From: a virus
Strand: one strand, 5' to 3'
Length of the DNA: 64,000 nucleotides
Virus genome (UHGV): UHGV-0026213
How positions within the stretch are numbered: the stretch's first letter is position 1; each line of letters begins with the position of its first letter. Both the position numbers and the translations under genes were made by a program. Shown piece after piece: positions 5,926-40,786 of this stretch. The notes below the pieces were generated by a model. It was not told the DNA's origin, did no database searches, and worked only from the letters and a program-made list of their open reading frames with translations.

Positions 5926-8643
5926 TTAGAGAGTTTCGTCGGCGTTGTCGTCTGTACCGGTATCCGTCTCGTCTGTGTCTTCAGCAGAAACGTCTTCTTC
6001 CGTTGTCGTATCGGTTTCCGTCGTTTCATCATCAGACATGTCCAAGTCTTCATCACCGCCCATATCGTCACCACCTAAGTCCTCATCGCCCCCTAAGCCA
6101 CCGTCGTCTTCAGAGCCGCCACCGAAGTCGTTACCCCCGACAAAGTTATTGGCGTCCTCAGGATTCAAATCAGCCGCTTTTGCTAAGGTTTCAACTTTAC
6201 CTGTTGTGCGTTTAGCTAACTGAATCAGCGTCTTCGATGCTGCTGCGATTTCATCAGAAATCATCTTGACGTTTTCACCACGTTTATCTTCGTCGTAGAT
6301 CAAATCAAACAGATCGGTTTCGATGCCTTGATTACGCAGCCAGTTACGCGTATAGAACGATTTAATCATCGTCTTGAGATCATCAGGCTGCATTTCGATA
6401 CCTTCATTCTGAAGCATATTCGAAATGTCGTCGGTAACAACCAGATCCGCCAGTTTCTCAATGAACTCATAGCGTTTATCAAACAGATCCGCTTGTGAAG
6501 AAGAAGCTGATGTGTCTGGTGGTGGTAAGGTGACTTTCATGCCATTGATGAACTTCGCCAGATACTCTGACGTCTGTTTGGTCAAGTCTTCACCTGTTAC
6601 ATTAGGATTCTGATTGCGAATATATTCAACGATAACACGAATCAGTTCTGCTTGTAACTTAGGAGAGGCTTGCAAACTGTTTGTCACGTAGCGTGTTAAC
6701 GGCGTAGATAGGATTTCTTGTTTTTTCACGATTTGCTGAGTCACCAGCAGTGACTTGGAATAAATCTGTGAAGCAAATTCCAGGTTTTCCGGCGTCAAAA
6801 CAAGATCCGGGTCTACACACGCGATGTGACAAGTACGACGGAGTAAGTTTTCATCGATTTGTTGATCGGGCACTTTATACTCAGGCGTTGTGTCCGAAAC
6901 CGACACTTTATGACTGGCGTAGTATTCATTACCCGTCACGTTAAATGCAATCCCGGCATTAGCCCCCATTGACCAAGCGTCATTGATATCACCCCACATC
7001 GGTAAACGACGGTTATAGGAGTTGAGAATATCTGATTTAACTTGGTCAACCGTTTTCTGACCGTTCATATCGTCTGGCGATAACTCAATGTCGTATTGCA
7101 TGTGACGTGCTGAGTTCAACACTGAGGAGTTCATCGTTGCGAACAACAGTGCCATCCTGACCGTAGAGATGATAAAGGAACGTTCGGTGATAGACACCCC
7201 AATACCATCTTCGTTAAAGTCCGTTGCAAAGTAGCACAAGTTATTAGCCGGGATATAGACAACCTGTGTGTGACGTTTTGCGAGGTGACGTGCCAGCAGA
7301 ATACGACCGAAAGTTTCGGTAATTTTCATGCTGATTTCAGCTCCACCCAATGCCTGGCTTAACGCACGGGTAAATTCGTTCTCAGCAATCTCGCTACAAC
7401 GGGCACTTAAACGGTTGGCGATCTCTGGCGTTATACGAGAGGTATTACCCAAACCTAAATTAGAGCGGTTGATAATACTGTCCGTCATGCCGTCGTTATT
7501 AAGGTAGTTCATAAAGTTCGCGTCCCCGTAAAGTGAAGAACGTGAGTTGATGAAGTTACCCATATCGTCAATAATGGTCAGAAACCCAATAGGGTTACGA
7601 ACGTCGTCGCCGATAACCAACGGTGCGGTAGACTCAGCAGGCAATAGACATTCGAAATATTCGATTTGGTTGTTTTCATTCATCGAAATAATCGGAATAT
7701 CGCCATAAGTCTGAGTTTTTGGTGTACCTTTGTACGCTTCGTTCAGATCGCCTAAGTTAATGAAGCCTTTTTCAGCCGCATCACGCTGACGATCGTTAAA
7801 CTGTTGATTAACTTCGTACGGCGTAGCACCTGTCGGTGTGGCAGGCTTTTCATATGCGGCTTGCTCTAATTGGCCGTAGAGACCAGTACGTGCGTTCTCA
7901 TGCGCGATTCGACGATAAGCATGGGGTAGTAACGTGATACGTGGGTTGTCGGTGATCGAGATGTCCATTTCGAACTTATCTGAGAACATCTTATCGTGGT
8001 TACTGAAATTGATTTTCAGCGACTGTGGTCCTTTAACAGGGCCACGAACACGACTCAGTATAGATTCCACACCTACGCGTTGCCCGTCTTCTTGCTCGTT
8101 GATTGGACCGAGAATACCGAGCTGGTCTTCGAAATAGGCAGCTTGAGAACGACGTACGGATTCGGTAGCGACTTTGGCGTCTAAACCGAACAACTGGTCA
8201 AATCCGTTGTCCGAGATTATCATCACTGGACTTGCGCCTTTTGTTTTTAACGCGTCGTAAATCCACTGATATAATTTCTTAGGTAATTGACGTACGTTAT
8301 CATGATAATCACGCGTTGGTGTCAGTAGGTCATTACGTAAGTCAATTGGAATGTCTGCGATGTTGTCGTAAATCAACGTGGTGTTGATTAAGTCTTTTGT
8401 CGACAGCAAGCTCGAAGTTGCAATGGTAACAATCGTTTCGAGTTCAGGTAACGCATCAAAGATACGTTCCGCATTTTTGATAGTACGAATACGCGAACTT
8501 ACAATTCCTGCAAGTTCCTGACGTGTTGGCGTAGAACCACCCTCGCTACGCGTACCGCGTTGTTGCTGGGGTGCTGGGCCCGTAGTTTTACGAAGAATTG
8601 CAGCTACGGCGGGGTCGCCCGTTAATTTACTAATATCGTCCAT
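5926..8643 (-). CDS. large hypothetical protein (905 aa) with poly-acidic C-terminal tail
   Basis: 2.7-kb minus-strand ORF; C-terminus is D/E/T/G-rich (GGDEDLGGDDMGGDEDLDMSDDETTETD...). Function unknown; possibly virion-associated. Confidence 0.8.
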   Translation of the reverse strand: MDDISKLTGDPAVAAILRKTTGPAPQQQRGTRSEGGSTPTRQELAGIVSSRIRTIKNAERIFDALPELETIVTIATSSLLSTKDLINTTLIYDNIADIPIDLRNDLLTPTRDYHDNVRQLPKKLYQWIYDALKTKGASPVMIISDNGFDQLFGLDAKVATESVRRSQAAYFEDQLGILGPINEQEDGQRVGVESILSRVRGPVKGPQSLKINFSNHDKMFSDKFEMDISITDNPRITLLPHAYRRIAHENARTGLYGQLEQAAYEKPATPTGATPYEVNQQFNDRQRDAAEKGFINLGDLNEAYKGTPKTQTYGDIPIISMNENNQIEYFECLLPAESTAPLVIGDDVRNPIGFLTIIDDMGNFINSRSSLYGDANFMNYLNNDGMTDSIINRSNLGLGNTSRITPEIANRLSARCSEIAENEFTRALSQALGGAEISMKITETFGRILLARHLAKRHTQVVYIPANNLCYFATDFNEDGIGVSITERSFIISTVRMALLFATMNSSVLNSARHMQYDIELSPDDMNGQKTVDQVKSDILNSYNRRLPMWGDINDAWSMGANAGIAFNVTGNEYYASHKVSVSDTTPEYKVPDQQIDENLLRRTCHIACVDPDLVLTPENLEFASQIYSKSLLVTQQIVKKQEILSTPLTRYVTNSLQASPKLQAELIRVIVEYIRNQNPNVTGEDLTKQTSEYLAKFINGMKVTLPPPDTSASSSQADLFDKRYEFIEKLADLVVTDDISNMLQNEGIEMQPDDLKTMIKSFYTRNWLRNQGIETDLFDLIYDEDKRGENVKMISDEIAAASKTLIQLAKRTTGKVETLAKAADLNPEDANNFVGGNDFGGGSEDDGGLGGDEDLGGDDMGGDEDLDMSDDETTETDTTTEEDVSAEDTDETDTGTDDNADETL

Positions 8644-30949: not shown

Positions 30950-30995
30950 CCTACCGCCCGATTCTATGGGCGGTAGGTGTTTTTATTTTTTTTTG
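30950..30995 (+). terminator. rho-independent terminator
   Basis: CCTACCGCCC-GATTCTAT-GGGCGGTAGG hairpin followed by TGTTTTTATTTTTTTTT. Confidence 0.85.
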
Positions 30996-31010
30996 ATCTG
31001 GGAGGTTTTA

Positions 31011-31571
31011 GTGACTACTTACGTACCTGATTTAAGTCTGGCCTCAGCCGAATTAGTGGTCGCTTTAATCAACCACGATAACGGTTCACGGTTGTCTCTA
31101 AACGAAATCCGTATTAGCAACACTATGGCAAACCCGTCCCCGACCACTTCGCGTCGTAACACACTGACAGAGATTACAAAAATCAGGAAACCTGATGGTG
31201 CTTCTGTGGTTGTTTATTACGACCGTTTGGATGCGGACGAAGTGTTAGCGTCTGAACCTATTTTGATTTCGTTAGACGGTACTGAAGACAACCTTCGTGA
31301 CATTTTAGGTGTTGTAAATGAATTCTGCGGAACGAACTTACAACCCGAAGATTTACGTGCTGCAGATATCACCTTAGGTAACGAACCCATTGCTGTTAAC
31401 GTTGCTGACGATTCTCCTGCGTGGATGAATGCGTTTATGGTGACGTTATTCGATACAACAGAACGAGCATTAGCAAACGAAGATGATGCGATCTTCTGTA
31501 TTGGTGATGATGCCGTTCTTACCTTTGAGGTTCCAGATGACGACACAGCTGAAGAAAACCCGGCTACATGA
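31011..31571 (+). CDS. fibre-associated protein, paralogue of the 37776-38291 gene
   Basis: GTG start 6 nt after GGGAGG; shares TPDLSL...ALIN.D, IYYNRL, CG.NLQ.EDL and VLTF motifs with the 37776 gene; each precedes a fibre gene. Confidence 0.55.
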   Translation: MTTYVPDLSLASAELVVALINHDNGSRLSLNEIRISNTMANPSPTTSRRNTLTEITKIRKPDGASVVVYYDRLDADEVLASEPILISLDGTEDNLRDILGVVNEFCGTNLQPEDLRAADITLGNEPIAVNVADDSPAWMNAFMVTLFDTTERALANEDDAIFCIGDDAVLTFEVPDDDTAEENPAT

Positions 31572-31773
31572 ACTTGACCGTTTTACCGGTAATGGAGGCC
31601 AAAGCAAACTTTTATCAAAACTTAACAATCCCAAATCATGAAGCGCGGAGTTGGGCATCACTTTCACGTTAGAAGATGATGGATTAAAACCAGTATAATA
31701 ATCCGCTTATAAAAATGTTGAGGGGTAAAACACTTCCTCAGATCTTTTAGCTCCCGATAGAGAATTAAATATC

Positions 31774-34700
31774 ATGGCTAAAGCGGTAAAGAAAATTCGT
31801 TTACACGATTTACGTCCATACACCGGGGATATCGGTGAAGGCGTTTTACTTTTTTCGAAAGACGAAAGGGATTATCAGTTACCTGTCCGCGAGATTGTTG
31901 CGGATATTGACACCGTCAGAAACGCGGTTGCTGACGCACAAACGGCGGCGGCCAAATCGCAACAGTCTGCAACAGAAGCCACACAAGCAAAAGACTTAGC
32001 AGAAACAGCGAAGCAACAAACTGACACGTTAGCTTCCACAGTTAGCGAGCAAGCGGGAACCGTTGCCACTAAAACTGCCGAGGTTAGCAAAAAACACGCT
32101 GAAGTTTTAGCCGCGAAAACGGCCGTAGATACTGTATTACAATCGGTAAATGAGAAAGCTCAAGCTGTCGCCACAAGCGAACAATCGGTGACGGCTGCAG
32201 CGGCTGATGTAACTAAGAAAGCAGAAACGGTTACGCAACAGGCCGGACAAGTTCAACAGACGGCTACCGGTGTCGAGAATACTGCGGCTTCAGTTGAGGC
32301 CAGTAAGGGCGCAGTGGAGAAGATTGCTGCACAGGTCGCGAAAGATAAAGAAAGTTCAGAAGGCGCAGCAACACGTTCGGAGTCAGCTGCCTTACGTGCG
32401 GAGAAAATCGCTGCGCAGGGCTTAATCGACGCCAGTACGACCGGTAAAGGTATCGTTAAACTTAACGATACACTGACTAGCGAATCCGTGACTGAGGCCG
32501 CCACACCGTCCACGGTTAAACAGCTGAATGACGAATTACAGTTAAAAGCCAATAAACATTCGCCGAATTTTACGGGTAAACCGTCATCCCCAACACCCCC
32601 GAAGGACTCGAACGACACGAGCATCTCCACAACGGCCTGGGTGCGTGACGCGATTGCGGAACTGGTTGGTTCTTCACCCGAGACGTTAAATACCTTAGCG
32701 GAATTAGCTGAGGCGTTAGGTAATGACCCTAACTTCGCAACAACGATTACTGGGGAACTTGCGCAGAAACAACCTCTCAGTCCGTTGCTCACCGCCATTG
32801 CCGCAGTCACCACAGCGGCAAATAAACTCATGTATTTCACTGGCAGTAATAAAGTCCGATTAACGGATTTTACAGAAACGGCTAGATCCTTGTTAGCGAA
32901 AGGGTCAACTGCGGATATCATCAATTTCTTGGGATTAAGAACCACCGTAGATAAAGCGAATGGTGCGCTACAGAAAAACTCTAACGGCGCTGATATCCCA
33001 GATAAAGAAACTTTTGCTCGAAACATCGGCCTATCTCCTGATACCTATCTGCGTTTCCGTGGCGAAATGCCTGTAGATGCTGATATTAACACATTTGCTC
33101 CAGATGCCAATTACACAGGAACGTGGGCTAAGTCGACATCAACCAATGCGTCGATGGCAAAACACTTCCCAGAAGACGGTGCGGTCGGTTATCTGGAAGT
33201 GTATAAAGCCGGTAATTACAGCGGTGCGCAACGTTTTACCTGTCGTAATGGTAACGTGTACAACCGTATGTTGTCAGGTGCGTGGAATGGTGCCAATGGA
33301 CCCTGGTCGCCGTGGAGAATGGTAACTACTGGTGTACGTCCGTTATCTACCTCTATAGACTTGAACTCTCTGGGTGGCGCTGAGCATATGGGTAACTGGC
33401 GAAACTCAAGCAGTTCGCTGGCTGTGTTTAGCAGACATTACCCTGAAGAAGGTGGTGGTGCGCAAGGCGTACTAGAAGTAATGGAAGGTGGTCTTTTCGG
33501 ACGGTTGCAGCGATACACTACGCGTCGTGGTACAATGTATGTTCGTGGTTTGACTGCAACGTGGGATTCATCAAACCCACAATGGGAAGATTGGATTCAG
33601 GTTGGTTATCAGACTGACGGTGCTTTCTTTAAAGCCAATTTTAACGATCTCGTTAAACCGGGACGTTTCAGTGTCACTGGTGAAGCAACTAATGGCCCAC
33701 TTACCGGTTCTTCTGGTGAAACCATATTAGGTGTTTGTGAAGTTACCTTACGCTTAGACGGTACAGGGGTCGAACAGAATTATACTACATACGGTACGGG
33801 TGTAGAAACTAAAGGTCGTAAATTCCAACGTATCCGTACGGGTAACGCTTGGAGCGATTGGCGTGAGGTTTTCACATCGTATTCGCTTCCGCTGGTATTA
33901 GGTATCGGCGGTGAACGTGCGAATGTTGATCCTTTAGACTGGCAAACCTATGACTTTAAACCAGGTGAGTTAATCTGTACGCCGCTTAACACCATGAAAA
34001 ACATTCCTGCGGGAATGGATTGGGGTGTTATTGACGGTAACTTAGTTAGCATTCTGGTTGGTCCATCAGATGGCGCATCCTCAGCCCGGAGTATGTTGGT
34101 TTGGCGTAGTACGGTGTCTACTGCCAACTATCGATTCTTTGCAGTACGTATCGCTGGTGAGAAAGGTAGTCGTACGATTACGCCACGACAGATGCCTGTA
34201 TTGAATGCAGCACACACCTGGGCAGAAAAACAGACCTTTGCAAAAGGGTTAGCAGGCGAGTTAACAGGCAATGCTTCAACCGCAACGAAATTAAAGACCG
34301 CACGTAGAATTGGTGGAGTCGCTTTCGACGGTAGTGGTGATATTAACCTCCCGGGTGTTAACCAACAAGGTAATCAAAACACCACGGGTAATGCCGGTAC
34401 AGCCACTAAACTTCAAACTGCCAGAAATATTAACGGTGTGAGATTCGATGGTTCTGCTGACATCAATATCAACACCTTGGTGGGTCGTGGTCGGGTTACT
34501 GCACTAACCGGTTCAAACAAAGGTACGCCTGGTATTCAGATGTACGAAGTTTACAATAACGGTTATCCGACCGCTTATGGTAACTTGCTGCATTTGGGCG
34601 GTTCTACTGCGCTAGGTGAAGGTGAACTGTTAATCGGTTGGTCGGGCACGAGTGGTGCGCACGCACCCGTTTATATTCGTAGTCGACGCGATACAGCGGA

Positions 34701-36375
34701 TGCGCCGTGGTCAGATTGGGCACAAGTTTATACTGCCCGTGATAGTATTCCTGGTGTAAATACCACCGGTAATCAAGATACTACTGGTAACGCTGCTACC
34801 GCGACGAAACTGAAAACTGCTCGCAGAATCGGGGGCGTTACCTTTGACGGTACTGGGGATATCAATTTACCGGGGGTTAACCAGCAAGGTAACCAGAATA
34901 CGACAGGTAATGCAGCAACCGCCACTAAGTTACAAACACCACGTAAGATCGGTGGTGTTAACTTTGACGGTTCGCAAGACATTAGTCTGCCCGGTGTGAA
35001 CCAAACCGGTAACCAATCGACTACGGGGAATGCTGCGACTGCGACTAAGCTCCAGACTGCGCGAAATATAGGTGGCGTAGCTTTTGATGGTACCAAAGAC
35101 ATCAACTTACCTGGCGTAAACCAAACGGGTAATCAGTCGACCACCGGAAACGCGGCCACGGCAACGAAGTTGCAAACTGCAAGGACCATCAACGGTGTTC
35201 CGTTTGATGGCACTAAAAACATCGAAATAACGGCTGAAAGTTTAAACCTTGGGCAAACTGTAGAATTGGCCGGTGGGTCATTGCAGAAGAAACAGAACGG
35301 TGCCGATATTCCAGATAAAAGGAAATTCTTACGAAATGTTGGTGCCCCGAACACAACAACCATATCTTTTAATGGTGGTGCCGGATGGTTCAAACTGGCA
35401 ACTGTAACGATGCCACAAGCCAGTTCCGTGGTTTACATAAGCCTGATTGGTGGTGCAGGGTTTAACGTTGGTTCCCCGCATCAAGCAGGTATCTCTGAGC
35501 TGGTTCTGCGTGCAGGAAATGGGAATCCAAAAGGTATTACTGGTGCGTTATGGCGACTGACCTCAGTCGGCTTCACTAATTTTGCATGGGTGAATACATC
35601 TGGTGACACTTACGATATTTATGTTGAAATAGGTAATTACGCCACCGGTGTTAATATTCAGTGGGACTACACTAGTAATGCCAACGTAACGATTCACACA
35701 TCGCCAAGTTATACGGCTAATAAACCCGCAGGACTAACAGACGGTACCGTCTATCTGATTTACAGCACACACAACAAACCTAACGCTGGTGACGTCGGTG
35801 CGTTACCGTCAGGGGGCGGTACTATAGGTGGCGATTTAACCGTTAACGGTAAATTGGTCACTAAGTACCCTGATTTTCGAATCGCTTACGGCAACTACGG
35901 CTTTATGTTACGTAACGATGGTGCCAATACCTATTTCTTAGTAACCGACGCCGGACAAGCTGCAACGGGTTCCTGGAACGGACTACGTCCGTTGTATTTT
36001 AATAACGCTAACGGCCAAGTAACCTTTGGTCATAACGTTACTGGCAGCGGTAACGGTTCGTTTAACGACGTACAGATTCGTTCTGACCGTCGTAACAAAC
36101 GTAATCTGGTGAAACTGGATAAAGCTTTGGATCGGTTAGAGTTACTAACCGGTTATTTGTACGAAATTCAGCATCCGGATGACGGTTGGCAAACCTCTGT
36201 AGGTCTAATTGCTCAAGACGCATTAGAAGCGTTACCTGAACTTGTGTCTGAGGATGATGATGCCATTTCAGGCGAAAAACGTTTACGTCTAAACTACAAT
36301 GGCGTTATTGCGCTGTTAGTAGAGGGTATGAAAGCGTTGCGTCAAGAGGTTAACGAAATTAAAGGAAGATCCTAA
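31774..36375 (+). CDS. long tail fibre protein with tandem fibre repeats and C-terminal intramolecular chaperone (peptidase S74-like) domain
   Basis: 1533 aa; Ala/Thr/Gln-rich N-terminal shaft; at least six copies of TTGNAATATKLQTAR.I.GV.FDG..DINLPGVNQ; C-terminus SDRRNKRNLVKLDKALDRLELLTGYLYE... resembles the auto-cleaving chaperone of endosialidase and T5 L-shaped fibre. Confidence 0.85.
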   Translation: MAKAVKKIRLHDLRPYTGDIGEGVLLFSKDERDYQLPVREIVADIDTVRNAVADAQTAAAKSQQSATEATQAKDLAETAKQQTDTLASTVSEQAGTVATKTAEVSKKHAEVLAAKTAVDTVLQSVNEKAQAVATSEQSVTAAAADVTKKAETVTQQAGQVQQTATGVENTAASVEASKGAVEKIAAQVAKDKESSEGAATRSESAALRAEKIAAQGLIDASTTGKGIVKLNDTLTSESVTEAATPSTVKQLNDELQLKANKHSPNFTGKPSSPTPPKDSNDTSISTTAWVRDAIAELVGSSPETLNTLAELAEALGNDPNFATTITGELAQKQPLSPLLTAIAAVTTAANKLMYFTGSNKVRLTDFTETARSLLAKGSTADIINFLGLRTTVDKANGALQKNSNGADIPDKETFARNIGLSPDTYLRFRGEMPVDADINTFAPDANYTGTWAKSTSTNASMAKHFPEDGAVGYLEVYKAGNYSGAQRFTCRNGNVYNRMLSGAWNGANGPWSPWRMVTTGVRPLSTSIDLNSLGGAEHMGNWRNSSSSLAVFSRHYPEEGGGAQGVLEVMEGGLFGRLQRYTTRRGTMYVRGLTATWDSSNPQWEDWIQVGYQTDGAFFKANFNDLVKPGRFSVTGEATNGPLTGSSGETILGVCEVTLRLDGTGVEQNYTTYGTGVETKGRKFQRIRTGNAWSDWREVFTSYSLPLVLGIGGERANVDPLDWQTYDFKPGELICTPLNTMKNIPAGMDWGVIDGNLVSILVGPSDGASSARSMLVWRSTVSTANYRFFAVRIAGEKGSRTITPRQMPVLNAAHTWAEKQTFAKGLAGELTGNASTATKLKTARRIGGVAFDGSGDINLPGVNQQGNQNTTGNAGTATKLQTARNINGVRFDGSADININTLVGRGRVTALTGSNKGTPGIQMYEVYNNGYPTAYGNLLHLGGSTALGEGELLIGWSGTSGAHAPVYIRSRRDTADAPWSDWAQVYTARDSIPGVNTTGNQDTTGNAATATKLKTARRIGGVTFDGTGDINLPGVNQQGNQNTTGNAATATKLQTPRKIGGVNFDGSQDISLPGVNQTGNQSTTGNAATATKLQTARNIGGVAFDGTKDINLPGVNQTGNQSTTGNAATATKLQTARTINGVPFDGTKNIEITAESLNLGQTVELAGGSLQKKQNGADIPDKRKFLRNVGAPNTTTISFNGGAGWFKLATVTMPQASSVVYISLIGGAGFNVGSPHQAGISELVLRAGNGNPKGITGALWRLTSVGFTNFAWVNTSGDTYDIYVEIGNYATGVNIQWDYTSNANVTIHTSPSYTANKPAGLTDGTVYLIYSTHNKPNAGDVGALPSGGGTIGGDLTVNGKLVTKYPDFRIAYGNYGFMLRNDGANTYFLVTDAGQAATGSWNGLRPLYFNNANGQVTFGHNVTGSGNGSFNDVQIRSDRRNKRNLVKLDKALDRLELLTGYLYEIQHPDDGWQTSVGLIAQDALEALPELVSEDDDAISGEKRLRLNYNGVIALLVEGMKALRQEVNEIKGRS
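34268..35235 (+). repeat. tandem ~33-codon tail-fibre repeats (Phage_fiber_2-like), codon-diversified
   Basis: Repeated NTTGNAATATKLQTAR...FDG..DINLPGVNQ units in two blocks; amino-acid identity is high but synonymous codons differ between copies. Confidence 0.75.
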
Positions 36376-37157
36376 TGGCAGTTGTCGGCGTAGGTGGTTG
36401 GATTGGTTCTTCAGCAAAAGCTGAAGCTGGTAACGAATGGATGTCTGGCGCGATGCGCACACTTGGTGTGCCGGTTCCAGGCTGGATGTCGCAATTGGCG
36501 GGAAAATCAAAAGAGGTCCATTATTCTATTGGTGCTAACCATAGCTATAATAAGGATACTCTTATTAACTATTTACGTTCTTTAGGCTCTACTGCTGTCG
36601 TTGTGACCATTACAGGGGATTTAGTGTCTTATAGTAGCGGGGTTCCTTGTTTAGAATTCCCTAGCAATCTTCCAAATTCGTATATTACACTCATCATCAA
36701 TCCTGGGGTTACAGTATACGGCAGAGGAGGCAACGGCGGTTCTAACTCACCAGGCGGTGCAGGTGGAACCGCAATACAGAACGGAATAGGAAACAGACTG
36801 CGTATAACCAACCGTGGCGCTATTGCCGGAGGCGGTGGCGGCGGTGGCGGCGGTAACAGGGGTAGACTAATATTTGGTGGTGGCGGTGGTCGCCCATTCG
36901 GTGCTGGTGGGTCTTCCTCTCATATGAGTTCCGGTGCGGCTGCTGGTACTATTTCCGCTCCTGGTAAAGGATCTGTTGGTGAGGGGTCTCTTAGTGCATA
37001 TACAGGCGGTTCGGGTGGTAATGTCGGTGCTGCTGGAGGAAGATGTAATACTCATGGTAACGGTACAGAATATAACGGCGGAGCAGCTGGTGCAGCTGTT
37101 ACTGGTAATGCGCCAAGATGGGACGCAGTAGGTGCAATATACGGTTCACGTGTTTAA
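36375..37157 (+). CDS. glycine-rich protein, possible receptor-binding adhesin (T-even gp38-like)
   Basis: 260 aa with poly-Gly tracts (GGGGGGGGGNRG, FGGGGGRPFGAGG); start overlaps the fibre stop; N-terminus conserved with the next gene. Confidence 0.5.
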   Translation: MAVVGVGGWIGSSAKAEAGNEWMSGAMRTLGVPVPGWMSQLAGKSKEVHYSIGANHSYNKDTLINYLRSLGSTAVVVTITGDLVSYSSGVPCLEFPSNLPNSYITLIINPGVTVYGRGGNGGSNSPGGAGGTAIQNGIGNRLRITNRGAIAGGGGGGGGGNRGRLIFGGGGGRPFGAGGSSSHMSSGAAAGTISAPGKGSVGEGSLSAYTGGSGGNVGAAGGRCNTHGNGTEYNGGAAGAAVTGNAPRWDAVGAIYGSRV

Positions 37158-37173
37158 TTAAAAAAGAGGGTAG

Positions 37174-37677
37174 ATGGGGGTAGCGTCAGGATGGGTCGGT
37201 TCTTCGGCCAAGAACGAAACGGGCGAACAATGGATGAGCGCTGCGGGTAGTAAATTAGGATTGGGTAGACCTTTTATGATGAGCCAAATGGTGGGACGAT
37301 CTATGGGCTGTAAAATTGCAACTGCTGCATATAGCGATTCTTTAGGTAAGAAATGGGGAGCAGTAGGGCCAAGTTGGCCGTTAAACCAGAAAAATCAGGG
37401 GACCATTCAAAACGCGGGTAACTGCGGGGTGGGAACTTTAGTAGGTATTGAGTTACAGTTAACGACGATAGTTGCCAACGCAAAGCCTACTTTAGCGGTT
37501 TACTTACAAGGAGGCAGAGCCTCTAACATTACCGTAAATTTAGGTGGCAACACCTGCGCGCTGACCTATCAGCAGGTTATTAACGGACAGCATTATTACT
37601 GGACTAATAACATCAGCGCTGCGTTCCAAAACGTGATGAAATCGACAGGCGCACTACGTGATTTGAGAATTAGCTAA
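37174..37677 (+). CDS. paralogue of the Gly-rich adhesin-like protein
   Basis: N-terminus MGVASGWVGSSAKNETGEQWMSAAG parallels MAVVGVGGWIGSSAKAEAGNEWMSGAM of the preceding gene. Confidence 0.5.
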   Translation: MGVASGWVGSSAKNETGEQWMSAAGSKLGLGRPFMMSQMVGRSMGCKIATAAYSDSLGKKWGAVGPSWPLNQKNQGTIQNAGNCGVGTLVGIELQLTTIVANAKPTLAVYLQGGRASNITVNLGGNTCALTYQQVINGQHYYWTNNISAAFQNVMKSTGALRDLRIS

Positions 37678-37711
37678 TTATTTTCAAGTCATAGTGCTTG
37701 AAAACATAATC

Positions 37712-37721
37712 GGGGGGGGGG
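37712..37721. repeat. homopolymeric G10 tract (intergenic)
   Basis: Ten consecutive G, 55 nt upstream of the ATG at 37776, between TTGAAA (37698-37703) and a TGAAAT -10-like hexamer. Confidence 0.9.
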
Positions 37722-37775
37722 TGAAATGCTTTAGCCAACATTTTATGACTCCCCTAACCGTTGGAGGTAAACTTT

Positions 37776-38291
37776 ATGGGGCAATTCACACCAGATTTAT
37801 CATTAACTTCAACTAACATGGTTATATCGCTGATCAACTACGACCTTCAGCTCGATCTGCAAGAAAACGAGGTTGAGTTCAGCAACGTAAATCCTACTGA
37901 AGAAATGAATCGTGATACCACTGCCGTTGTAAAGATTAAGCGTCCTGGAAACAGAACGTTGCAGATCTATTACAACCGTTTAACCGCAGAGCGGTGGTTA
38001 AACCAGCAACCTATTCTGGTAAAAGTAATCGGGGAAGGGTTTACCACACACGATTTAATCGAAGCGATTAACGCAGCTTGTGGCAGTAACTTACAAGCTG
38101 AAGATCTAACAGATAATTCATTTACTGTAGGAAAAGACGCGGTAACGTTGCAGGTATCGCCTAGTTCACTAGGTTATAAAGGTCAATTCTCTGTTCTGGT
38201 TTTCGGTAACGGTGAAGAAGCCGCAGTAACAAAAGACGACGATTTAATCGTTACCGCAGATAATCGTGTATTAACTTTCGGAGATCATTAA
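37776..38291 (+). CDS. fibre-associated protein, paralogue of the 31011-31571 gene
   Basis: ATG after GGAGG; conserved motifs with the 31011 gene; precedes the second fibre/tailspike gene. Confidence 0.55.
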   Translation: MGQFTPDLSLTSTNMVISLINYDLQLDLQENEVEFSNVNPTEEMNRDTTAVVKIKRPGNRTLQIYYNRLTAERWLNQQPILVKVIGEGFTTHDLIEAINAACGSNLQAEDLTDNSFTVGKDAVTLQVSPSSLGYKGQFSVLVFGNGEEAAVTKDDDLIVTADNRVLTFGDH

Positions 38292-38575: not shown

Positions 38576-38610
38576 CCGGAAGAGCATTGGTTTAAAAATT
38601 GGAGGTTACA

Positions 38611-38748
38611 ATGGTTCAACCAATTGGAAAGAAACGTATCCATGAACTCGACAATTTCTCTGGCGATCTCAAAGGTGCGGTAGTTCTCCTTTCTAAGGAA
38701 GAAAAAGAATATAAAATTGATATTGCAGAACTTCAAGGGGGGGGGTGA
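38611..38748 (+). CDS. N-terminal virion-anchor segment of the tailspike, in a different frame from the esterase body
   Basis: ATG 5 nt after GGAGG; encodes MVQPIGKKRIHELDNFSGDLKGAVVLLSKEEKEYKIDIAELQGGG, homologous to the first 45 aa of the 31774 fibre; frame ends at TGA just after the G9 tract. Confidence 0.5.
   Translation: MVQPIGKKRIHELDNFSGDLKGAVVLLSKEEKEYKIDIAELQGGG
38737..38745. repeat. homopolymeric G9 tract at the tailspike frame junction
   Basis: Nine consecutive G; one extra G would fuse the upstream anchor frame to the esterase frame. Confidence 0.9.
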
Positions 38749-40736
38749 CGGAACCGGATTATTACTTCGTGATCCCTATAGCCGGGCAATCTAATGCGAT
38801 GAGTTATGGTGAAGGATTGCCTCTACCAGCGACGTTGGACGCTCCCGATCCGCGGATTAAACAGATGGCACGCCGTACGAAGGTAACGCCTAATGGAGCT
38901 GATTGTAAGTATAACGACGTCATTCCAGCGGATCACTGTCTGCACGACGTGCAAGATATGTCCGTATTCTCGCATCCCAATGCCAATTTGGACAAAGGTG
39001 AATACGGATGTGTGGGTCAAGGTCTACACATCGCGAAGCGTCTTCTCCCGTATATTCCTAGCAACGCTGGTATCTTACTAGTACCCTGCGCACGCGGTGG
39101 TTCTGCTTTTACAGGTGGTGCAGAAGGTACCTTCGATGACGCCACAGGAGCCTCTGCGGCGTCATCGGTATGGGGGGTGGAAAAACCGCTTTATAAAGAT
39201 TTAGTTAGCCGGACCAAAAAAGCTCTGGAGGTTAATCCTAAAAATAAACTCCTGGCTGTAGTGTGGATGCAGGGAGAGTATGATCTGACTAAAGTAGGTT
39301 ACGCACAACAACCAGCGCTATTTAACGCTATGGTAGAGCGTTTCCGAACTGATCTCTCTGACCATCTCCCTCAGATGCCCGAGTACGACACCGCCGAAGT
39401 ACCATGGATCTGCGGGGACACTACCTACTATTGGAAGGAAAAATATCCTGCTCAATATGAAACCATATACGGTAATTATCGTAACAATGAACAAAAAAAT
39501 ATCTTTTTTGTTCCATTCATGTACGACGATAATGGCCAACGTGTACCGACTAATGATCCCACTGACGATCCTGATATCGCCGCTGCTGCTTACTACGGTG
39601 CTGCCTCCCGTAGTAATAAAAACTGGACGTCTGAAACAAGGAATAGCCATTTCAGTTCTTGGGCTCGACGCGGTATTATCTCAGAGAGAATAGCTGCTGA
39701 GATATTATCAAGAACAGCGATTGGTGCAATGCTCATGACGAAGAACGACACTAAAGAGCTCAAAGACAATATGAATGTGGTAAGAAGCTATACCCCATTA
39801 GTAGAGTCTGTGGGTTATAACGGACGTCGTGGAGATGGTTCCCTGAAAGGGCAAGGTTGGAACAATACCATTGATTGTAACGTAACCGTGCAAAAATCTG
39901 AGGATGGAAATGGACATTTCGTCGAATTAAGAAAGGCTGTAAGTAACAAACCTTGGAATGTAACCAGGTCAATGGCAACAGCTGCAGACATGATACGTTA
40001 CGGTGGACGTCTGACCGTTACTTTTAGACTAAAAGGTGATTTAGCAGCAAATCGTTTCGGGTTAGGACTTTATTGGCGTATCTCCGCGTCCGACCTACCT
40101 TCTGGTACTACACTTGCTGACGCTAGTGTGGCTGATACGAACCCGTACCTAATGTCTTTTTTCTTACAGACCGACGCTACGAATCTTTATCTGATGCATC
40201 ATAAAAAGCAGAATGTGCAATTAGGAACTTTCGGTGCGTACGATAATAACTGGCATACGCTTGAAATCATTTATCCGGGTGACAATAAAATCAAAGTCAC
40301 GCCTGTGCTTGACGGCAAGAATGGCACTCCATTTGATCTGGCGAACAGTACAGCTAAGACCAATTTGAACGAATTGGTTCTGACAGATATTACGAAAGTT
40401 ATTGCCTACGATATCGATATTTCGAAGTTTGAGATCTCGGTCAATCGTGATTCTGGTAGTATAGTGTTATCTGAGGAAGATGTATCGTCTTATGTGTATT
40501 TCCCAGCCACCAACCGTGGCGGCCAACTTACTATTCCTGATCTAGAATATAGCGTGGGTAGAAATATTCAGATCGTGGCAAATAAGGCTGGTTCGATCAC
40601 CGTTAAACCGGAAAATTCAAACGTTCTCATCACTCCAAAGAGTGGGACGGAAGGTCTTGCCAAACCCATTGAGACCAATGAAAGTATTACGCTAATGCAA
40701 GTTGGCTCCGATGGTAAAAGCTGGGTAGTTATTTAA
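38745..40736 (+). CDS. tailspike/fibre body with SGNH-type esterase (sialate O-acetylesterase-like) domain
   Basis: 663-aa ORF; N-terminal YFVIPIAGQSNAMSYG carries the GQSN nucleophile motif of SASA/SGNH esterases; lacks its own anchor domain in frame. Confidence 0.7.
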   Translation: MTEPDYYFVIPIAGQSNAMSYGEGLPLPATLDAPDPRIKQMARRTKVTPNGADCKYNDVIPADHCLHDVQDMSVFSHPNANLDKGEYGCVGQGLHIAKRLLPYIPSNAGILLVPCARGGSAFTGGAEGTFDDATGASAASSVWGVEKPLYKDLVSRTKKALEVNPKNKLLAVVWMQGEYDLTKVGYAQQPALFNAMVERFRTDLSDHLPQMPEYDTAEVPWICGDTTYYWKEKYPAQYETIYGNYRNNEQKNIFFVPFMYDDNGQRVPTNDPTDDPDIAAAAYYGAASRSNKNWTSETRNSHFSSWARRGIISERIAAEILSRTAIGAMLMTKNDTKELKDNMNVVRSYTPLVESVGYNGRRGDGSLKGQGWNNTIDCNVTVQKSEDGNGHFVELRKAVSNKPWNVTRSMATAADMIRYGGRLTVTFRLKGDLAANRFGLGLYWRISASDLPSGTTLADASVADTNPYLMSFFLQTDATNLYLMHHKKQNVQLGTFGAYDNNWHTLEIIYPGDNKIKVTPVLDGKNGTPFDLANSTAKTNLNELVLTDITKVIAYDIDISKFEISVNRDSGSIVLSEEDVSSYVYFPATNRGGQLTIPDLEYSVGRNIQIVANKAGSITVKPENSNVLITPKSGTEGLAKPIETNESITLMQVGSDGKSWVVI

Positions 40737-40742
40737 TTTAAA

Positions 40743-40786
40743 CCGTAGGATGGACTAAGTCCATCCTACGGTTTTTATATTTTTTC
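40743..40786 (+). terminator. rho-independent terminator
   Basis: CCGTAGGATGG-ACTAAG-TCCATCCTACGG hairpin followed by TTTTTATATTTTTT. Confidence 0.85.

Follow-up and report, generated by a model that had tools for sequence, protein, structure and literature searches.

In T-even phages, the adhesins of the gp38 type are the best understood host-range determinants and the easiest to re-engineer. Phages Mu and P1 possess invertible fibre segments, and Campylobacter phages possess poly-G phase-variable receptor-binding genes; to our knowledge, poly-G switching of such genes has been described only in Campylobacter phages, and not in enterobacterial or nucleus-forming phages. According to previous studies, the gp38 of RB49 recognises OmpA and O antigens (PMC9569957), and phages FL18 and FL20 are OmpA-dependent (PMC12032242). 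Recently, it was suggested that fibres bearing an intramolecular chaperone (IMC) domain generally depend on separate, easily overlooked adhesin genes (bioRxiv 10.64898/2026.05.12.724579).

The locus described here lies in a 64-kb stretch of phage DNA (the window), the source of which is a Chimalliviridae-like jumbo phage of the nucleus-forming type with a genome of ~225 kb, and not a member of Straboviridae. The hosts of this phage are gut enterobacteria; it appears to be uncultured and probably belongs to the proposed 'Bapsvirus' lineage, which is widespread in gut metagenomes as well as in Salmonella, Shigella, and E. coli isolate assemblies and has no cultured member. A complete genome of ~225 kb (ENA ERZ27287186 k141_659670) is identical to the window over 16.5 kb. 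Exact copies of the two adhesin genes discussed below (A1 and A2) are also present in Salmonella, Shigella, and E. coli assemblies. Fibres are not mentioned in the paper describing the lineage, the module composed of fibre, A1, and A2 is absent from the related Erwinia phage Asesino, and no clear foreign island was found in the composition profile of the window.

The long tail-fibre gene (31774..36375, + strand) encodes a chimera of 1533 aa. Residues 1 to ~45 form an anchor common to gp140 of Asesino and the adjoining esterase tailspike; the shaft consists of Phage_fiber_2 and six repeats of ~40 aa (residues ~836-1170), which are seen at the protein level only, no tandem or direct repeats being found in the DNA of this gene. 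The C-terminal chaperone domain, which the preliminary description presumed to be cleaved off, was identified by a match to Pfam PF13884 Peptidase_S74 (40.8 bits, residues 1437-1491) and by its similarity to S16 gp37 (6F45_A, E 1e-12); it also aligns with the IMC domains of phage-plasmid, Stx-phage, and PEi26 fibres. This domain of 96 aa covers residues 1438-1533 (36085..36372, + strand). The motif IRS/DRRNK (S1437-D-R-R-N-K1442; the slash marks the cut) aligns with VSS/DRRIK of S16 gp37 (VSS/DRRIKKD in 6F45_A), and from this alignment of the Ser-Lys motif an autoproteolytic cut is predicted after Ser1437 (codon 36082..36084, + strand; …GNGSFNDVQIRS/DRRNKRN…), by which the chaperone domain would be released after trimerisation. 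The C-terminus of the fibre left after cleavage would be the docking tip for an adhesin, and within the window this fibre is the sole one with an IMC domain and such a cleavage tip.

Two open reading frames on the + strand directly follow the fibre gene, just where they had been placed before. The start of A1 (36375..37157, 260 aa), a gp38-type adhesin with glycine-rich motifs, overlaps the fibre stop (TAATG), and a 16-nt spacer separates A1 from A2 (37174..37677, 167 aa), a short Gp38_N adhesin. The spacer contains a Shine-Dalgarno-like AGAGGG (37165..37170, + strand) and no reported terminator-like site, which implies co-transcription of A1 and A2; sigma-70 promoter-like sites were not commoner than in shuffled sequence. 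The esterase tailspike gene (38611-40736), a neighbour of the locus, is broken in the window by a G9 tract (38737-38745), the length of which varies; another poly-G tract lies at 37712-37721. No match was found for a downstream protein of 283 aa by tblastn against phages.

The docking domains of A1 (residues 1-42, nt 36375-36500, + strand) and A2 (residues 1-40, nt 37174-37293, + strand) share ~55% identity (BLASTP, 21/38 identities over residues 8-45, E 5e-10), and both score above the Pfam gathering threshold for Gp38_N (25 bits), with 53.6 bits for A1 and 72.2 bits for A2, so that the common N-terminus noted earlier is far above chance. However, the preliminary description called the two genes paralogous, which holds for the first ~45 residues and not for the remainders, which are unrelated; since the similarity is limited to residues 8-45, A1 and A2 were rejected as whole-gene paralogues. 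Likewise, the term glycine-rich suits A1 (25% Gly), in which the poly-Gly motifs GGGGGGGGG and GGGGGRPFGAGG do occur, but not A2 (13.8% Gly). The unrelated C-terminal domains lend support to the proposal that the two adhesins differ in specificity, and for the idea of interchangeable tips the population variation at this locus provides indirect support only.

The resemblance of A1 to gp38-type adhesins extends to full-length membership in the family. Residues 47-260 match Pfam PF05268 GP38 with 237 bits, and A1 also matches PHROG 2056 (315 bits), S16 gp38 (PDB 6F45_D, E 9e-51, residues 7-258, with the N-terminus aligned as well), and 9v85 (E 2e-38). The same part (nt 36513-37154, + strand) is predicted from its sequence to form the T2/S16-type beta-helix and polyglycine-II sandwich with hypervariable loops, and the glycine-rich motifs are invariant across the alignment of A1 and gp38 proteins. 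A1 shares 76% identity with RB49 gp38 overall and 82% without the docking domain, which is only 46-52% identical to those of the nearest gp38 relatives. HVS2-4 of A1 are nearly identical to those of RB49, FL18, and FL20 gp38, and on account of this identity OmpA is predicted as the most likely receptor of A1, which possibly also binds some O antigens, as RB49 does. The A1 gene adjoins a distal fibre gene ending in an S74 chaperone domain with a cleavage motif, and its product would be a monomer on the trimeric virion tip that binds an outer-membrane receptor.

A2 has no match to PF05268 in Pfam and is outside the GP38 family, sharing with T2/S16 gp38 the docking module alone. Its residues 1-61 align with the attachment domain of S16 gp38 (6F45_D 1-62), and the entire protein is covered by a match to PHROG 1121 'tail fiber adhesin' (158 bits; residues 1-160 against positions 1-173 of the 181 in the profile); no experimentally shown function of any PHROG 1121 member was found in the literature. 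The C-terminal domain (residues ~45-167, nt 37306-37674, + strand) was modelled by AF2 as a strand-rich beta-sandwich without polyglycine helices (pLDDT ~90). An exhaustive HMMER search with this domain yielded 10 representatives, none of them showing it fused as the terminal part of a fibre protein; the large hits (LapA, PKD, Big_7) are repetitive Ig-like bacterial adhesins and were treated as generic or compositional. Among relatives of A2 the docking domain is 95% conserved and the C-terminal domain ~55% identical, and the same docking domain bears other C-terminal domains in P0010 and P0016. Homologues of A2 come after IMC fibres in PEi26, Stx phage 75/02, and CMS-2020a.

The adhesin slot was also compared among sibling contigs of ~225 kb (L005, L006, L010-L014, and L015). 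A2 is constant across these genomes, and the slot before it varies: in L006 the fibre gene is directly followed by A2 and A1 is missing; L005 has an A1 allele with a 48-aa in-frame deletion, by which glycine-rich motifs are lost; L015 possesses other HVS alleles of gp38; and L010-L014 carry a 181-aa Gp38_N adhesin together with a lipoprotein. The resident module appears to comprise A2 together with the tip and the chaperone domain of the fibre, while A1 occupies a variable insertion slot situated between fibre and A2. Exact copies of A2 were found on at least 50 contigs, including all sampled window-type genomes, and exact copies of A1 on 15. The dN/dS values were 0.10-0.25 for A2 and, in comparisons with dS of ~0.5 or more, 0.10-0.26 for A1, while the nearest A1 pairs gave 0.2-0.8 from few substitutions; between genomes having an A1-type gene as well as A2, such as the window and L015, dN/dS was 0.15-0.16 for A2 and 0.22 for A1. 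Both A1 and A2 are under purifying selection. A scan of GTDB genomes yielded 4 distant loci only, too few for the frequency of tandem adhesins.

Taken together, the fibre, A1, and A2 are likely to constitute a T2/S16-type module of a fibre plus clip-on adhesin, here with two alternative adhesins, and two receptors are probably recognised via one fibre. Under such an arrangement, the three genes would be co-expressed late; the S74 chaperone domain would aid fibre trimerisation and then cleave itself off after Ser1437; the trimeric tip (…GNGSFNDVQIRS), once exposed, would take one adhesin monomer through the ~40-residue Gp38_N domain; and each fibre would be capped by A1 or A2, leading to virions with mixed tips. 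A1 would then present hypervariable loops on a polyglycine-II sandwich, and A2 an unrelated beta-sandwich for a second receptor. The docking of A1 and A2 on the tip of the 1533-aa fibre, their simultaneous use, and their receptors are what we infer from these comparisons. In phage-plasmid CMS-2020a (CP054387) and Stx phage 75/02, the same tip and IMC sequence (GNGSFNDVQIRSD[KR]RNKRNLVKLD) occurs with an A2 docking domain that is 95% or 81% identical to the one in the window; on the other side, the docking domain of A1 shares only 55% identity with that of A2, which counts against taking a fit of both to one tip as more than a presumption.

As L006 is devoid of A1 and A2 is frameshifted in some siblings, either adhesin can be dispensable, and this would also suit a replacement in progress in place of joint use. 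If replacement were under way, new cassettes would enter behind the fibre gene and ahead of the resident A2, only one adhesin would be functional at a time, the displaced gene would be on its way to being lost, and the tandem would be transient. The sibling lacking A1, the deleted A1 allele of L005, and the out-of-frame A2 (G10, called as a 124-aa remnant) in at least 10 contigs having the upstream 181-aa adhesin and lipoprotein are all consistent with such a turnover. However, A2 is intact and identical in the 50 or more contigs mentioned above, the dN/dS values between the dual-gene genomes are low for both genes, and at the poly-G start of A2 in the siblings the in-frame lengths G8 and G11 are commoner than the out-of-frame G10, a pattern more suggestive of reversible switching than of decay; we thus regard replacement as unlikely. 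It is less probable still that A2 acts in assembly or shields the fibre tip instead of binding a receptor, although its homologues in PEi26, RB16, and Margaery carry the legacy label 'distal long tail fiber assembly catalyst' and the comparison of its C-terminal model with solved structures returned no relative and no known receptor-binding domain. A2 was rejected as a T4 gp38 assembly chaperone, with no BLASTP alignment to the latter at E <=100 (T4 gp38 itself gave a weak Caudo_TAP signal only), and the preliminary description's alternative of a chaperone only fails for this reason. Furthermore, the fibre comes with an intramolecular chaperone of its own, A2 bears the attachment domain of a virion-bound type of adhesin, and a docking domain that stays constant while the C-terminal domain diverges fast or is swapped is a hallmark of receptor-binding proteins. 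In CMS-2020a (CP054387), the A2-type gene is the sole adhesin-like gene after the IMC fibre; the order of fibre and then adhesin is also found in Stx phage 75/02, where a second annotated tail fibre protein lies further downstream.

A1 and A2 might also not compete for one tip at all, if A2 (or A1) docked on another fibre encoded outside the window, which covers 64 kb of the ~225-kb genome. One or more other fibre-like proteins do exist in this phage, the esterase tailspike being one. We consider this very improbable, because the 1533-aa fibre provides the only IMC and cleavage tip in the window, the same tip adjoins A2-type adhesins in unrelated phages, and A1 and A2 are located directly behind this fibre, like gp38 behind gp37 in T-even phages. 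The module with two alternative adhesins on one fibre is the reading we prefer.

A further possibility, which we put forward tentatively and hold to be somewhat doubtful, is that the locus is a bet-hedging array, in which one scaffold stochastically receives at least two unrelated clip-on adhesins and poly-G tracts switch the genes; the switched genes may be A2 among the siblings and, in the window genome, the esterase tailspike. The tract at the start of A2 in the siblings varies in length (G8, G10, and G11), suggesting that it is hypermutable, and no more than suggesting it, since the five contigs differing in poly-G length belong to distinct strains (78-326 SNPs per 14.5 kb). In the window, A2 begins with G5 only, A1 and A2 contain no tract of seven or more G, and both are in frame; pattern scans of IMG/VR for two poly-G junctions found nothing. 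If the locus is indeed such an array, this could explain the occurrence of one lineage in Salmonella, Shigella, and E. coli isolates.

The locus is thus a known clip-on adhesin system in a new arrangement rather than a new kind of system: a gp38 module that has been moved to a jumbo-phage fibre, in a phage of the nucleus-forming type, in the form of a heterotypic tandem. It supports the view that IMC-bearing fibres rely on separate adhesin genes (bioRxiv 10.64898/2026.05.12.724579), it offers a predicted receptor for A1 (OmpA) as well as a putative second adhesin domain, that of A2, with no solved structural relative, and its variants provide a natural series for host-range work.

Among the known systems, the S16 gp37-gp38 pair (PDB 6F45), together with gp38 of the T2/T6 type, shares with the window a fibre chaperone domain with an S/D-R-R-x-K site, at which the cut is predicted for the window, and a separate adhesin with an N-terminal attachment domain, encoded immediately 3' of the fibre; beta-helix, polyglycine-II sandwich, and hypervariable loops are common to S16 gp38 and A1 only. 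Unlike S16, which belongs to Straboviridae, the window comes from a Chimalliviridae-like jumbo phage of ~225 kb, its fibre is a single 1533-aa chimera with a jumbo-phage anchor instead of the gp34-37 set, and it has two adhesin genes, the second without a polyglycine domain. The gp38 genes of RB49-like Krischvirus and of FL18/FL20 (OmpA-dependent 'type 2') share 80-91% nucleotide identity with A1 in the common part, but in their docking domains A1 and RB49 gp38 share no more than 46% identity, which presumably reflects a different fibre tip. As in Mu and P1 and in the Campylobacter-phage systems, one fibre scaffold would be combined with alternative receptor-binding ends and population heterogeneity; however, the locus has no invertase or inverted repeat as in Mu/P1, and it differs from the Campylobacter poly-G genes in its in-frame A1 and A2 and the short G5 at the A2 start.

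The SSU5-like phage-plasmids ('Escherichia phage CMS-2020a') and the Stx podophages (75/02 Stx, P13374, phi191) possess the same fibre tip and IMC domain and an A2-type adhesin (60-66% identity overall, 81-95% in the docking domain). One adhesin is present behind their fibres, and of the CMS-2020a records one has the glycine-rich adhesin type and the other the A2 type, whereas the window carries both types in tandem. A literature search for two adhesins in connection with gp38 found nothing relevant, and no functional study was found of the tandem 'gp38' genes of Edwardsiella phages PEi20 and PEi26 (Kanagawavirus). Like the window, these phages have a tandem pair of Gp38_N adhesin genes, in their case behind gp37, and so demonstrate that adhesin tandems also occur in other phages, but PEi26 is a T4-like phage in which both copies are of the short type and share 40% identity with each other, while the window pairs two structural classes of adhesin.

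The fibre gene (31774-36375, 1533 aa), A1 (36375-37157, 260 aa) and A2 (37174-37677, 167 aa) lie head to tail in the same orientation on the plus strand, with the A1 start codon overlapping the fibre stop (TAATG) and AGAGGG within the 16-nt spacer 5' of A2. A terminator-like site was looked for in this spacer and none was reported; weak terminator-like matches fall inside the coding sequences of the fibre and A1, and a strong terminator-like hairpin (16 pairs) first appears at 40740-40774. The preliminary description had proposed two paralogous genes with a common N-terminus directly after the fibre. Because the ORFs occupy these positions and 21/38 residues are identical at positions 8-45 (E 5e-10), the coordinates and the common N-terminus are confirmed, while paralogy does not extend to the whole genes: no similarity was found outside positions 8-45, and the rest of the two proteins is unrelated. 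Glycine content is 25% in A1 and 13.8% in A2, and the G9 motif and the GGGGGRPFGAGG motif are both in A1.

According to its matches to Pfam (GP38, 237 bits; the docking domain Gp38_N, 53.6 bits), PHROG 2056 (315 bits), S16 gp38 (6F45_D, residues 7-258, E 9e-51) and another gp38 of known structure (9v85, E 2e-38), A1 is a full-length gp38 adhesin, as its polyglycine motifs had suggested. A1 is 76% identical to RB49 gp38 overall, with 82% outside the docking domain and just 46% inside. Hypervariable segments HVS2-4 of A1 align as near-identical to those of RB49, FL18 and FL20. OmpA dependence has been shown for FL18 and FL20 (PMC12032242), and the gp38 of RB49 uses both OmpA and some O antigens (PMC9569957); OmpA is therefore the predicted receptor of A1. 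The shorter A2 carries Gp38_N (72.2 bits) and has a full-length match to PHROG 1121 "tail fiber adhesin", and comparison with the T4 gp38 chaperone gave no similarity, which supports an adhesin rather than a chaperone only. Its alignment with S16 gp38 is limited to A2 residues 1-61. Because A2 lacks the polyglycine sandwich, it is not a PF05268 member; it belongs to a recognised class with just the docking module in common.

The fibre contains Phage_fiber_2, Gp34_trimer-like (residues 1335-1408) and C-terminal Peptidase_S74 domains, and an alignment with S16 gp37 (6F45_A, E 1e-12) spans its C-terminal 124 residues. The chaperone domain presumed earlier is thus supported by Peptidase_S74 and the S16-aligned motif. 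Since fibre IRS|DRRNKRN sits on S16 VSS|DRRIKKD, cleavage is predicted after Ser1437, which would free 96 residues. The shaft includes six repeats of about 40 aa (…GNQxTTGNAATATKLQTAR…GVxFDG…; ~34279-35280, residues ~836-1170), detectable at the protein level only; one 120-nt unit is missing in sibling contig L010 relative to L011-L014, so repeat copy number differs between strains. Just 5' of the fibre gene, 31537-31614 encodes a fibre-anchor relic (KKTRLHELDRF…, 46% over 26 aa, E 8e-4), called as a 43-aa ORF in the siblings, which is probably what is left of a fibre gene that was lost or replaced. Paralogues of the DUF7941 "virion structural protein" (30966-31571 and 37761-38291), each 5' of a fibre or tailspike gene, may be fibre adaptors; the second is fused to a 644-aa protein in L009.

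Comparison with sibling contigs of about 225 kb showed that A2 stays constant, whereas the slot separating it from the fibre varies. The slot is empty in L006, with A2 directly after the fibre; it holds A1 with a few substitutions in L004, L008 and L009, and A1 with a 48-aa in-frame deletion in L005. L015 differs in its fibre tip and in HVS2-4 of its A1, and its A2 allele is 170 aa long; L010-L014 have a 181-aa Gp38_N adhesin and a 76-aa lipoprotein, followed by an A2 homologue. The L005 allele (7346-7984, 212 aa, one contig) is deleted between two GGAGG motifs, which costs it one hypervariable segment and several of its glycine-rich motifs. In the L010-L014 cassette (7001-7787), the adhesin has a third kind of C-terminal domain, and the predicted lipoprotein, beginning MLRKVLLGFALLTVSGC…, could by analogy be a receptor blocker like T5 Llp. 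Docking domains are kept at 95%, and C-terminal domains are diverged (55%) or swapped. Both A1 and A2 are under purifying selection: in deeper comparisons (dS about 0.5 or more), A2 has a dN/dS of 0.10-0.25 and A1 one of 0.10-0.26, and the closest A1 pairs, which differ by only 10-30 substitutions, have 0.2-0.8. The comparison of the window with L015 involves two genomes each with both adhesin genes.

Only two G/C runs of at least 7 occur in the 64 kb, both in the fibre-adhesin module; about 0.14 runs of at least 9 are expected by chance. The first, G10 at 37712-37721, separates A2 from the gene that follows (9-11 G at the equivalent sites of siblings L005-L015) and can pair with downstream CUCCCC to form a hairpin; another hairpin lies 5' of it at 37681-37704. 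The second, G9 at 38737-38745, divides a SASA-esterase/DUF6645 tailspike-like gene (38599-40736) into 49-aa and 663-aa ORFs. The 663-aa piece starts with GTG at 38745, and the N-terminus of the 49-aa piece resembles the fibre anchor. Sibling tailspikes are in frame (706, 707 or 708 aa), differing by 1-3 Gly codons at the tract, ELQG(1-3)VTEP, or lack the tract. Three contigs have the split form, which may reflect either the OFF state of a phase-variable gene or an assembly error in the homopolymer. In the A2 homologue of L010-L014 (about 7800-8310), a G tract begins right after the ATG. Tracts of G8 and G11 keep the frame (at least 21 contigs; 168 or 169 aa), whereas G10, in at least 10 contigs, reads M-G-G-G-stop, and a 124-aa remnant is called there. 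Such a tract resembles a switch that turns the second adhesin ON or OFF. Because contigs differing in tract length are distinct strains, rapid switching is at most suggested.

The evidence best supports an S16/T2 mechanism in which either of two adhesins can cap the fibre; beyond gene identity, we infer all of it. The chaperone domain would aid fibre trimerisation and then be cut off, and each tip would take one adhesin monomer held via Gp38_N, the stoichiometry of one gp38 per gp37 trimer being taken from 6F45 and the literature. Fibres capped by A1, with its predicted OmpA specificity, and by A2 would then coexist, either on one particle or within one population. Alternatively, one adhesin may be in the course of replacing the other, a reading favoured by the absence of A1 from L006, the A1 deletion allele of L005 and the frameshifted A2 copies. 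A2 might also be a non-binding cap or an assembly factor, or docking might take place on another fibre encoded outside the window, within which the present fibre is the sole one bearing the intramolecular chaperone (IMC).

At the DNA level, the window matched deposited phages only via A1 and the fibre C-terminus. A virion protein of 1148 aa has 49% identity to that of Erwinia phage Asesino (Erskinevirus, Chimalliviridae) and ~39% to those of SPN3US-like phages, and over 16.5 kb the window is identical to a metagenome contig of 224,967 bp. Many gut metagenome contigs of ~222-226 kb encode exactly these A1 and A2 proteins, whose entries include NCBI records of isolate assemblies from Salmonella, Shigella flexneri and E. 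coli as well. Because these features fit the proposed genus "Bapsvirus" (~226 kb, Chimalliviridae, in Salmonella/E. coli/Shigella assemblies; PMC12768965), the window probably belongs to this carrier-state lineage, whose description does not cover fibres or adhesins (PMC12768965). On the minus strand, a 440-aa ORF (54797-56119) matches radical-SAM families, and the adjoining 307-aa ORF (56103-57026) corresponds in position to the second gene of the radical-SAM pair gp180-181 in Asesino. The Asesino fibre has only the ~45-residue N-terminal anchor in common with ours (54% identity), and the 46 kb examined around its fibre locus contain no IMC or Gp38_N gene; a jumbo-phage anchor has therefore acquired shaft, tip and adhesins as a grafted-on enterobacterial host-range module.

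The tip and IMC sequence GNGSFNDVQIRSD[KR]RNKRNLVKLD… was also found beside an A2-type adhesin in two unrelated genomes, the SSU5-like phage-plasmid CMS-2020a (CP054387) and Stx podophage 75/02, whose docking domains are 95% and 81% identical to that of A2, respectively. In a second CMS-2020a record, the fibre is followed by a glycine-rich gp38 80% identical to A1. A1 is a new member of the well-known gp38 family, and we found no earlier description of a heterotypic adhesin tandem behind an IMC fibre, with a variable insertion slot, in a Chimalliviridae-like jumbo phage. Tandem adhesins are also present in Edwardsiella phages PEi20 and PEi26, on which no study was found, but these are two short-type copies. 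The CMS-2020a records and 75/02 have one adhesin directly after that fibre, whereas the window has both types.
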